From Promethearchaeota archaeon (lineage in GTDB: Archaea > Asgardarchaeota > Heimdallarchaeia > Hodarchaeales > Hodarchaeaceae), in contig JBHLMN010000003.1 in assembly GCA_048938105.1 (NCBI GenBank), positions 64,001 to 128,000 of the forward strand: a DNA stretch of 64,000 nucleotides. Reading direction: 5' to 3'. Positions 1 through 17,304 of the stretch are shown here, one piece after another (within the stretch, counting starts at the first letter, position 1; the number at the start of each line of letters is the position of its first letter). Below the pieces are notes generated by a model that saw only the letters and a list, made by a program, of their open reading frames with translations, did not search any database and was not told the origin of the DNA. The position numbers and the translations under genes were made by a program.

Positions 1-25
1 AATAAAGGTATTCTTTAAAGCCATC

Positions 26-3000
26 ATGGATTTTCTAACTAATTTTAATTTTAAGAAAATCATCCAAGAATATTTACCTGACCTTATTGGATTTATCATC
101 GATACATTAGGCGGAGGTTCAGGTGCTTCGGTCACTACTACTGAAGATGCTGAAACTTGGAGTAAAATTATTGGAATTTTAATGAATTTGTTGATGACCG
201 CAATTGGATATACTGCTGATGAAGTTGAAATCACAGAAGGGGAAATTGAAGTCAAAAATAATTTAGCAAGTGTCTTTAAGGATTTATTAGAGTTACTCGA
301 TGAGAAATTTACTGAAGTAACATACGCAGCTGATCAGATCCAGAATTTAATACAACAAATTAATACTATCATCTCTCAAGCAAAAGAAGCTGCATTATCG
401 GATGTAGATACTTTTGTTTCAAATCTTGAAAATGCAATAACACAAACTGGATTTCAATTTCATTCTGACAGCACTAAAAATGCCAAGATCAAAGAAATGA
501 TTGTTTCTGGGGCTACGATGGTCGCTGGGGCCATTAATGGTGATTTTACTAATAAGGATAAACTCCCAAATCTCAATAGTACCGTAGATTTCTTAATTGA
601 TGTTACTGAATTTATGATTGGAGATATTGATGACACAAAAGAAGTGAAAATTAAGAAAGCTGTGAACAACATTGTGGCCATCATTGCAGTTATCAGTGAT
701 AAAGACGAATTAAAACAATATATTAGCAGTACAATTGAGAAATTCAAGCAACAATTCTCAGATCCCGTTGCTTTGATTCAGAATACAATTAACTTTTTAA
801 TAACGGGCGCCCAAGGACTTAATCTCAATACTGATGTTTTAGAAAAGATCAAGACCTTTGCAGAAATGGGAGTAGGGTTCTATAATATAATAATGTCGGC
901 AAAAGACAATAGTATCCAAGGTATATTGCAAGCTCTTATTCAAAATATTGGTATGAGTCTTATTAAGGAATTTACTGGTGTAGACATTTCATTTGTCAAT
1001 GACATCTTGAAGTTCATCTTTCCAAAATTCTTCGGTGTTGATAGTTCAGAGCTGCCTTCTGCTCAAGAAATGATCAGTAATCTTCTCAGTCAACTAGATC
1101 AAGTAGATGGACTAGATGCAATAGTTAGTTCTGCTACAGGAGGCGCATTATCAAATCTAAACGATTTAAAAGATGCAATTGAGGCAATATTAGGATTTAT
1201 CTTTAGTGCAAAAGATATTTTCACAGATGGTATTCGCTGGCTCTTTGGACAGCTGATGGATTGGCTAGGTGGACAAATTGAACAATTAATCAGCATGCTA
1301 TTAGATGCTATCACAAATGCTCTTAATGCAAGTGACCTTTTCCCTCCTGAATGGGCTGGATCGTTACCAATAGGATTAGGCGGTTTTAGTCTTTTCAGTA
1401 TCGGCATTGAATTAGGTTTATATCCCCATTTCGGATTTGATGAATCAGCTTTTTCAGATTGGATGCTAGATATTGTCTTTGGAGGTTTGAATCCATTTGC
1501 AGGTGGAGATATTGCTGATTTCTTCAAAAAGATATTTTCATTCTTCGAATTAATACCAACCTTCAAAGCAGGATTTGAAATTGGAGGATTTGGGACTGAA
1601 GAAAATCCCATGATGGCTTTTCTCCTCGAATCTCTCGGACTTGAACTGGAATTCTCAGGCAAAGGGTGGTTCGAGATGGAGTTATTTACCCTAAAAGGTG
1701 GGGTTTTTGATACTGATAACTTCTTTAAGGTTATTGAATGGGGTTTCTCGTTTACCATTACTATCTCGAGAACTTTTACATTATTGGACTTCTTGACCGG
1801 AGGTACTGCTGGAGCACTTAATGCAATTGGAGAATACATTGGTTTAGATGCAATTACTGTAACAGTCTCATTTGGTATATTTCTTGAAGTTGTAAAACGG
1901 GCGGCTTCCGCTACTGGCCCAGAAGAAGGTTCATTTACGCTTAAAATTACTATAGGTCTGGCTGTCCACCTTGGTCTTAATCTCCTGATAGTTGGAATAT
2001 CTTTTGACTTTTCACTAGAGATCATACTGACGTTTTTCCAAGATCTTGTGGCCCCCACGCCGCTTCAGATTTTCTTGGAGATCATCCTCCGGTTCAGCGT
2101 CACTCTCACATTTCTATTCTGTGATTGGGAAATTGAATTTGAGTGGAAACCTCTCGACCCGTCTCCCTTAGAATTAACTCCAACTAACAAAGCGGAACAA
2201 GAAGATAGTGGGGCGATGGGCCTAGACGATGATGGCGATGGTTTAGGTAATGCATACGAGGAAAATACACCTGGTCTTAATCCCCTATCAGAAGACACCG
2301 ATGGGGACGGACTCACAGATAAGTTTGAAACTCAAACATCGAAAACCGATCCCATCTTACCAGATACCGATGGCGATGGATTGGACGATTTTGTCGAGTA
2401 TCACCATACAAAAACAAATCCTCGTCAACCAGATACTGATTGGGACGGATTAACTGATTATGAAGAGGCAATCATCATCCAAACTGACCCATTAGACACT
2501 GATACAGACGATGATGGTATTGATGATAATTATGAGGTCAATCATGCCTATGATATCTTGGGAGTGACACCCTCCGTAGAATATGTCATGATTGGAGGTG
2601 TCAAATATTACGATCGAACGGATCCCCTCAATCCTGATACCGATGGAGATGGCCTCATTGATGGAGAAGAAGGTGAATACGGTCCCTATTATGGTTTAGA
2701 TGACCTCTATAATGAGACAGCAGAAGCAGGTACTGATACCCCACCACTTATTTTCAATGGCGGATATACTCACCCCCTAGATAACGATACTGACGATGAC
2801 ACTTGGGAACAGCTATATGATGGAAAAATAGCCCCAAGTAAAGCACATGCTTGGGTGAAACTAAAAGATGGAACATACATTCTAACCACAGATTGGTGGG
2901 AAATCAAAGGAATGCCCATAGTCTACATGATAGAAGGAGAACCAGTGCTGAATATTACTTATACGAACCCCTGCAATCCTGATACTGATGGAGATACTGG

Positions 3001-17264: not shown

Positions 17265-17304
17265 TTTTTTTGATGCTAGGCCTCTTCCTAGCTCATTTTT
17301 TTTT
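17265..17304 (+). terminator. T-tract / hairpin / T-tract terminator after the surface-protein operon
   Basis: T-run right after the stop codon, stem gctagg-cctctt-cctagc (17275-17292), then T9. Confidence 0.65.

Follow-up and report, generated by a model that had tools for sequence, protein, structure and literature searches.

CglD of Myxococcus xanthus, a surface adhesin with TSP3/COMP repeats (TSP3, thrombospondin type-3), mediates Ca2+-dependent adhesion together with partner proteins and is needed for Ca2+-dependent gliding (10.1101/2023.10.19.562135). Cultured Asgard archaea of several lineages carry elaborate surface proteins instead of a standard ordered S-layer, and their behaviour includes adhesion, crawling and attachment to syntrophic partners (PMC9834061, PMC13716822, 10.1101/2025.02.26.640444). 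The window analysed here is a stretch of 64,000 nucleotides from a Promethearchaeota archaeon of the Hodarchaeaceae (G000:C14:64001-128000, G000 being the source genome, a 5.85-Mb assembly in 65 contigs). Its positions 1-17264 are filled by three co-directional open reading frames (ORFs), designated ORF1, ORF2 and ORF3. Members of the ORF1 family are called protein A and members of the ORF2 family protein B; G009, G010 and G011 denote relatives of the source genome, and f1, f2 and so on denote families within the phylum. To our knowledge no adhesin has been named for Asgard archaea. The cassette provides concrete, testable candidates for the surface structures of these organisms and is present in the cultured Lokiarchaeum ossiferum.

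The explanation that we favour on balance, with moderate confidence, is that the three ORFs constitute an Asgard-specific cassette for exported, probably N-glycosylated membrane proteins with Ca2+-binding repeats, which would be made together and whose A-B core would form one membrane-anchored unit, ORF3 being an order-specific third component. Protein A would begin with a signal segment and an alpha/beta domain, continue with a helical array and an amphipathic beta domain, and end in a long calcium stalk of the TSP3 type and a transmembrane (TM) anchor. Protein B would carry several propellers of the FG-GAP type behind a signal segment and would be TM-anchored in most species. Functional coupling of A and B is the best supported part of this proposal as judged from the genes; the two proteins probably also associate physically, most likely touching near the membrane. 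ORF3 would be a type-I protein of PPC repeats, added as a third component only in this order (f1 and f2). In G000, where protein B has lost its own anchor, it may be set free, or be retained by A and/or ORF3. As to function, the cassette would likely be part of the irregular surface coat, or serve adhesion or contact.

The coupling of A and B is indicated by their adjacency, by a gene fusion, by a paralogous cassette with reversed order and by matching presence and absence. Genes of the two families were neighbours in all 27 loci with enough sequence, namely 14 in the class, 12 in other classes and that of L. ossiferum (near CP104013.1:4.816-4.825 Mb), in which the ORF1-like match is closely followed downstream by the ORF2-like one. 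This adjacency spans families f1, f2, f3, f5, f7, f11, f17, f21, f24 and f27. In four genomes of one f11 genus (Thorarchaeota) ORF1 and ORF2 form one stop-free frame, which encodes 4,716-4,901 amino acids (aa) in three of them and is cut by the contig end in the fourth. The junction keeps the TM of ORF1 and the hydrophobic segment of ORF2, joined by a loop of some 60 aa rich in Lys, Glu and Ser; by its predicted topology it is a coherent TM hairpin.

A paralogous cassette on another contig of G000 (Table 1) encodes ORF2', an FG-GAP-type protein with a TM and a basic tail, followed by ORF1' and a beta-helix protein, so that the core gene order is reversed relative to the window. Both cassettes pair an ORF1-family gene with a neighbouring ORF2-family gene, once in each order, which strengthens the case that the two families are functionally coupled. 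That ORF1' might be partnered with the beta-helix protein instead of the FG-GAP giant was ruled out, ORF2' lying directly upstream of ORF1'. In G009 and G011 the two cassettes stand in tandem in the order ORF1-ORF2-ORF3-ORF2'-ORF1', followed by a beta-helix protein with a TPR C-terminus and an all-TPR protein. The TPR proteins are a hint at a cytoplasmic partner.

Among the 40 genomes nearest to G000, ORF1 was found in 20, ORF2 in 19 (the exception being a fragmented assembly) and ORF3 in 14, while the remaining genomes, several of them more than 90% complete, had none of the three genes. Within f1 and f2 the three genes are present or missing together. Orthologues of ORF3 were not found outside these two families, and their identity is 42-48% within the genus and 27% in f2. 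The first-pass annotation of this DNA had predicted a three-gene unit and had named beforehand synteny and co-occurrence across Asgard relatives as its test. The adjacency in all 27 loci and the agreement of presence and absence in the 40 genomes bear this out for ORF1 and ORF2, which are a conserved unit; ORF3 proved to be an order-specific addition, confined to f1 and f2.

The close homologues of ORF1 carry the labels Hodarchaeales or Heimdallarchaeota, and each is annotated as a hypothetical protein. The N-terminal head of ORF1 matched 91 cluster representatives among 1.84 billion (E <= 1e-3). The beta domain occurred in 79 of 300 sampled genomes of the phylum, concentrated in f1, f3, f5 and f11, with none in the 68 genomes of f14 or the 11 of f4. 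Named carriers are Thorarchaeota, Kariarchaeota, Heimdallarchaeum aukensis and H. endolithica, Harpocratesius repetitus and the cultured L. ossiferum. As far as searched, the A-B pair appears to be restricted to Asgard archaea, yet its distribution is patchy. The beta domain was also found on two short contigs labelled bacterial, L055 (JAGLOY010000192.1, 'Candidatus Aegiribacteria', 91% identity) and L068 (CAZHVH010000400.1, 'uncultured bacterium', 46% identity), which are probably wrongly binned Asgard contigs.

The three genes are packed very tightly. The TAA of ORF1 is separated from the two candidate ATG starts of ORF2, each preceded by a GGAGG-like element, by 1-19 nt, and the TAG of ORF2 abuts the start of ORF3, with a gap of 0 nt if GTG is used. 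A T7 run directly after the ORF3 stop, a 6-bp hairpin and a T9 run mark a likely transcript end, which occurs after ORF3 alone; only two runs of six or more T were seen inside the 18.7 kb of coding strand, and the gene after ORF3 is convergent. The coordinates thus confirmed the tight co-directional spacing described by the first-pass annotation and, for its single shared terminator, a single likely transcript end, and from these we infer that the three ORFs are made from one transcript. A scan for sigma-70 promoters, a model unsuited to archaea, was uninformative, with 61 matches against 64 expected. In G+C content the cassette (window 1-17000) lies at 0.36-0.42, compared with 0.32-0.36 in the remaining window, which probably reflects the Asp/Gly-rich repeats rather than a foreign origin.

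ORF1 is truncated by the window edge, its frame being open at base 1. The full gene (G000:C14:62553-69194) starts at an ATG 1,447 nt upstream of the window and encodes 2,213 aa, not 1,722. Its 5' side is an AT-rich spacer of about 720 nt, beyond which lies a divergent gene. The latter (L002:6077-9829, minus strand, corresponding to G000:C14:58077-61829) encodes a 1,250-aa FtsX-like permease, and farther out are genes of an Opp/Dpp-type peptide ABC transporter, one permease and two ATPases.

That the products are exported surface proteins is suggested by signal-like and TM segments, by repeat families that are typically extracellular, and by an excess of N-glycosylation sequons in ORF3 and ORF1. 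Export, glycosylation, Ca2+ binding and adhesion are accordingly read from the predicted proteins. By hydropathy, ORF1 has a signal-like N-terminal segment (residues 21-44, encoded upstream of the window) followed by Ala-Val-Ala. Its Pfam match to TSP3_bac (PF18884) scored 35 bits against a gathering cut-off of 25, and no other family came up at E <= 0.01 when the complete ORF1 region was scanned. Between residues 1225 and 2024 there are 30 DxDxD motifs and 13 motifs of the strict form Dx[DN]x[DN]G, and after these repeats come a short beta-rich segment and the TM. ORF3 has a signal-like segment (residues 15-37), a TM (residues 885-907) and, behind it, a tail of some 50 aa rich in Lys, Pro and Gly. 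Its ectodomain consists of five or six tandem PPC-type units, three of them clear and headed by DDxxExND linkers at residues 472, 601 and 732. The PPC match (PF04151, residues 633-707) scored 35.7 bits against a cut-off of 25.9, and a motif scan found neither DxDxD nor the strict motif in ORF3.

ORF2 starts with a signal-like segment; it contains several beta-propeller regions of the FG-GAP type, and two Asp-box motifs lie in a further region. The propellers are called from Pfam matches above the gathering score (FG-GAP_3, E 4.3e-34; FG-GAP, E 4.3e-18), with further propeller matches of the WD40-like, BBS7, BBS2 and ITFG2 types; 12 strict Ca-loop motifs were counted. The N-terminal 600 aa or so are the best conserved part in distant orthologues, with 36-38% identity across classes. 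Two BBSome families also scored above gathering, Beta-prop_BBS7 with 45 bits against 27 and BBS2_Mid with 36.7 against 27 (window 5463-6150 and 13191-13484); these are best read as generic FG-GAP-like propeller similarity, implying no BBSome relationship.

The first-pass annotation had described all three proteins as packed with Ca2+-binding motifs and sequons. The former holds for ORF1 and ORF2, whereas ORF3 has the three DDxxExND linkers alone. Sequons are in excess over composition-matched shuffles in ORF3 (21 against 9.2 +/- 2.6) and modestly so in ORF1 (21 against 13.0 +/- 3.5), but not in ORF2 (35 against 29.1 +/- 5.0).

Several points weigh against the cassette acting as one exported unit. 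Export and membrane anchoring are read solely from hydropathy and motifs. In most species each protein has a signal and an anchor of its own and could act alone. ORF3 is missing in most of the lineages that carry the A-B pair. The patchiness of the pair, with 79 of 300 genomes positive and none of those sampled from f14 and f4, means that the cassette is no general Asgard surface component. Finally, what adjacency and fusion demonstrate is a functional link; physical binding does not follow from them.

The first-pass annotation had gone further and proposed that the three proteins form one Ca2+-dependent heteromeric apparatus, in which a propeller protein without an anchor is held by two anchored partners. 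We consider this rather unlikely. It had correctly placed C-terminal TM segments in ORF1 and ORF3, and a signal-like segment but no C-terminal TM in ORF2 of G000 (hydropathy). The hydrophobic core of the ORF2 signal is short, about 12-16 residues before Ser-Pro, and by reading looks cleavable, as the heteromer would have it. The anchorless state, however, is particular to G000 and G010. Of 22 complete ORF2 orthologues, 20 end in a TM and a basic tail, including that of the closest relative, G009, and protein and DNA alignments showed that G000 and G010 alone lack the roughly 200 nt that encode linker, TM and tail, the ORF2 stop codon marking the position of the missing segment. In both genomes ORF2 is in the same frame as the abutting ORF3, with a single TAG between them (window 14385-14390; L020:3370-3378). 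Because the anchored G009 is closer to G000 than G010 is (86% against 73% identity in the ORF1 head), the two losses look independent. Being derived, the loss cannot be a design principle of the system, and the claim that partners have to hold the propeller protein loses its support, since it rested on a derived truncation of a protein that anchors itself in 20 of the 22 orthologues.

On the other side, the anchor was lost twice and only in cassettes that carry ORF3, which gives mild support to retention by partners, as does the joint presence or absence of the three genes within f1 and f2. Soluble release and retention of the anchorless ORF2 protein appear equally possible, and the loss in G000 offers a natural experiment on whether these proteins hold each other. 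Read-through of the TAG, which would fuse ORF2 to ORF3, was rejected, as the Lys-rich and ORF3 signal segments would then place the PPC units and sequons in the cytoplasm. The heteromer is further disfavoured by the confinement of ORF3 to f1 and f2 and by its divergence. ORF3 diverges fastest of the three, with identities of 42-48% compared with 56-64% for ORF2 and 70-87% for the TSP3 part of ORF1, which suits an exposed variable protein better than a fixed structural partner.

A second explanation, which we likewise think unlikely, is that the cassette encodes adhesins or coat glycoproteins that are independent of one another and have only an operon and a regulator in common, each acting alone and without a complex. 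In its favour, every one of the proteins carries a signal segment of its own and is self-anchored in most species, repeats of these types are common in prokaryotic adhesins that work singly, and the neighbourhood holds further genes for large surface-type proteins, among them one with a beta-helix and a C-type lectin domain. Against this stand the strict A-B adjacency across at least ten families, the retention of the pairing in the reversed paralogous cassette and the A-B gene fusion in one genus, all of which are unusual for unrelated neighbours.

A membrane-active or lipid-handling contact device is a third possibility. Here the helices and beta domain of ORF1 would bind or insert into lipid, for example that of a partner cell, the TSP3 stalk would present them and the ORF2 propellers would bind. 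The idea derives from the predicted structure of the ORF1 head, a region of about 1,200 aa for which no credible Pfam family was found in 16 family members even at E <= 1 and no usable match in the ESM Atlas. An AlphaFold2 (AF2) model of residues 45-1230 from a 41-row alignment (pLDDT 69, pTM 0.40) consisted of an alpha/beta domain (pLDDT about 90), some 25 helices of moderate confidence and a region of long strands. With the whole 1,186-aa head Foldseek gave no match below E 1e-3; its first four rows were large lipid-transfer proteins, in which amphipathic beta-sheets behind a helical domain line a lipid cavity, namely microsomal triglyceride transfer protein with two chains, apoB and lipovitellin, while vitellogenin took rank 7, all of them weak (E 1.3e-3 to 5.3e-2, TM score about 0.1). 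Pfam matches of the head included no large-lipid-transfer-protein family (e.g. Vitellogenin_N), even at E <= 1.

A VIA structure search with the head resolved the N-terminal alpha/beta domain alone, with SAVED-CHAT at Z 10.8 and PurR, PurE and receiver domains at Z 9-10.6. As SAVED-CHAT was tied with these other folds, a caspase/CHAT identity was not accepted, and the model indicates a generic three-layer alpha/beta fold. An HxxGxGNT-like motif of the domain contains a Gly that is invariant and a His that is nearly so; a protease is not evident, since no Cys is conserved. The beta domain (residues 885-1225), folded separately with 70 rows, gave a better model (pLDDT 82.9, pTM 0.68) and is the best conserved part of the family. 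It has 10-11 long strands interleaved with short helices, and in each strand one face is strongly hydrophobic (mean Kyte-Doolittle 1.4-3.9) and the other polar. All of the 50 best VIA matches of this domain were transmembrane beta-barrels, a fold in which amphipathic strands close into a barrel that turns its hydrophobic face outward, at Z 8.2-10.0 and root-mean-square deviations of 3.8-8.5 A, which is near noise level, the tool's own guide giving Z 7-8 as common noise. The best Foldseek match was FepA (E 1.9e-4, TM score 0.33).

These amphipathic strands, barrel matches and lipid-protein rows speak for the device, but every match is weak, and the five hydrophobic helices between the strands could bury the hydrophobic face in a soluble domain. 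On the model the beta domain may be soluble with its greasy face buried on its own helices, a lipid-binding cup or a membrane-inserting sheet. We hold the lipid device to be improbable. The same low probability attaches to the more specific idea that the head is a lipid-binding or membrane-inserting module on a Ca2+-stiffened stalk, forming with the ORF2 propellers an Asgard organ of partner contact or exchange that could correspond to the tipped surface filaments or 'complex surface densities' observed by cryo-EM.

Least credible of all is an extracellular polymer-degrading or -binding enzyme system, in which ORF2, by its propellers and Asp-box region, would act as glycosidase or lyase and substrate binding would fall to the PPC units of ORF3, for its only indications are the two Asp-box motifs and ORF2 matches to BNR_2 (E 0.0012) and a lambda-carrageenase propeller (E 0.0066) that fall below gathering score, whereas Pfam and NCBIfam gave no catalytic family in any of the three proteins and sequence searches of PDB chains gave no relative of ORF1, ORF2 or ORF3 at E <= 0.1.

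The coordinates of the cassette and of the related cassettes are collected in Table 1. Two other genes of the window may be mentioned. The convergent neighbour (window 17561-22078, minus strand) encodes a 1,505-aa protein of the right-handed beta-helix/NosD type into which a C-type lectin domain is inserted (Pfam Lectin_C, E 2.3e-22), a domain unusual in archaea. Farther downstream (window 31399-35208, plus strand) lies an ORF of 1,269 aa for which Pfam gave no match at E <= 0.001.

Table 1. Positions of the three genes, their predicted parts and the related cassettes (window coordinates unless another locus is given)
Feature	Position	Strand	Remarks
ORF1	1..5194	+	3' 78% of a 2,213-aa gene; whole gene -1447..5194; TAA ends at 5194
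ORF1 alpha/beta domain	residues ~65-245, L003:745-1287, upstream of window	+	AF2 model
ORF1 helical array	1..1325, residues ~290-925, starts upstream of window	+	AF2, ~25 helices, pLDDT 55-78
ORF1 beta domain	1340..2152, residues ~930-1200	+	AF2 and conservation
ORF1 TSP3-type Ca2+-binding repeat region	2216..4672, residues ~1222-2040	+	Pfam and motifs
ORF1 C-terminal TM	5072..5167, residues 2174-2205	+	hydropathy; tail of <10 residues with RRK
ORF2	5196..14387	+	3,063 aa from ATG 5196, 3,057 aa from ATG 5214; TAG 14385..14387
ORF2 N-terminal propeller region, ~600 aa	5463..7265	+	BLAST segments q2-691; Beta-prop_BBS7, WD40 and Itfg2 matches
ORF3	14388..17264	+	958 aa from GTG 14388, 955 aa from ATG 14397
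ORF3, three clear PPC-type units	15801..16967, residues 472-860	+	each with DDxxExND linker first and DxD-aromatic motif
Likely transcript end	17265..17304	+	T7 run, 6-bp hairpin, T9 run
Paralogous cassette	G000:C49:5895-24842 (L030, L050)	one strand	ORF2' 3,231 aa, ORF1' 2,152 aa, beta-helix protein 939 aa
Tandem cassettes	G009:C1:1632101-1680700 (L016, L017, L051), also G011:C4	co-directional	seven genes, ~48 kb; 850-aa beta-helix/TPR protein, 912-aa all-TPR protein

How does the cassette compare with what has been described? The first-pass annotation knew of no account of it as a system, and the literature searched on Asgard archaea and FG-GAP, thrombospondin or integrin likewise gave no published description of the cassette or of its A-B pair; the text of the supplement to 10.1101/2025.02.26.640444, as far as it was available, mentions none of these domains. 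Large surface proteins or structures have been described in this group of organisms. L. ossiferum bears 'complex surface proteins' on a single membrane and has no ordered S-layer (PMC9834061), and Asgard cells crawl while adhered (PMC13716822). Cultured Hodarchaeales have unexplained filaments with tips of about 50 nm at partner contacts, and in one strain an S-layer-like lattice was assigned to other proteins (10.1101/2025.02.26.640444). A preprint on Nerearchaeum mentions a very large 'badge' surface protein (LOKIASV2_13140) with a novel fold (10.1101/2025.07.22.663070). The A-B pair is encoded in L. ossiferum; it is named in none of these papers, and a link to the imaged structures is speculation.

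The TSP3, FG-GAP and PPC domain calls of the first-pass annotation all scored above the Pfam gathering cut-offs, but the likeness to integrin, thrombospondin and the collagen-binding domain (CBD) of collagenases that it drew from them extends to repeat types only. The eukaryote-like flavour is thus a repeat-level resemblance and is not to be read as ancestry. ORF3 resembles the CBD of clostridial collagenases in its PPC match and in acidic DDxxExND linkers like the Ca2+-binding linker. Unlike in collagenases, the PPC units form the whole ectodomain of a TM-anchored protein, and Pfam and NCBIfam found no peptidase family in ORF3 or its cassette neighbours; collagen is not expected as a ligand.

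The resemblance of ORF2 to integrin alpha lies in FG-GAP repeats with Ca2+ loops, in the type-I anchoring of most orthologues and in a large anchored protein encoded next to it. The integrin thigh and calf leg families were not found in ORF2 by Pfam, and instead of a GFFKR-type tail the orthologues have tails of the KKRR type, the G000 copy having no TM. Unlike integrin alpha, ORF2 has several propeller regions in one chain of 3,063 aa. An integrin beta-type partner was not seen either, Pfam and NCBIfam showing no VWA/betaI family in ORF1 or ORF3.

ORF1 clearly has the bacterial TSP3 repeat (PF18884), with tandem motifs. The lectin-like domain that follows the type-3 repeats at the C-terminus of eukaryotic thrombospondin and COMP was not found in it by Pfam at E <= 0.01. 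With CglD/MtsD (NCBIfam NF033765, NF047639) it shares the character of a prokaryotic surface protein with long thrombospondin type-3-like Ca2+-binding repeats. Its match to the CglD model NF033765 covers the repeat region (E 2.6e-35) and, at 121.6 bits, is far below the 400-bit cut-off; it is a partial match because of the TSP3 repeats, and NCBIfam gave nothing beyond it. Unlike CglD, ORF1 has no VWA domain, is not a lipoprotein, carries a 1,200-aa head without a known family and a C-terminal TM, and belongs to a single-membrane archaeon. By analogy CglD may nevertheless be regarded as the nearest functional precedent for ORF1, and the cassette, with an undescribed set of domains in the ORF1 head, belongs with the operons of Ca-repeat adhesins.

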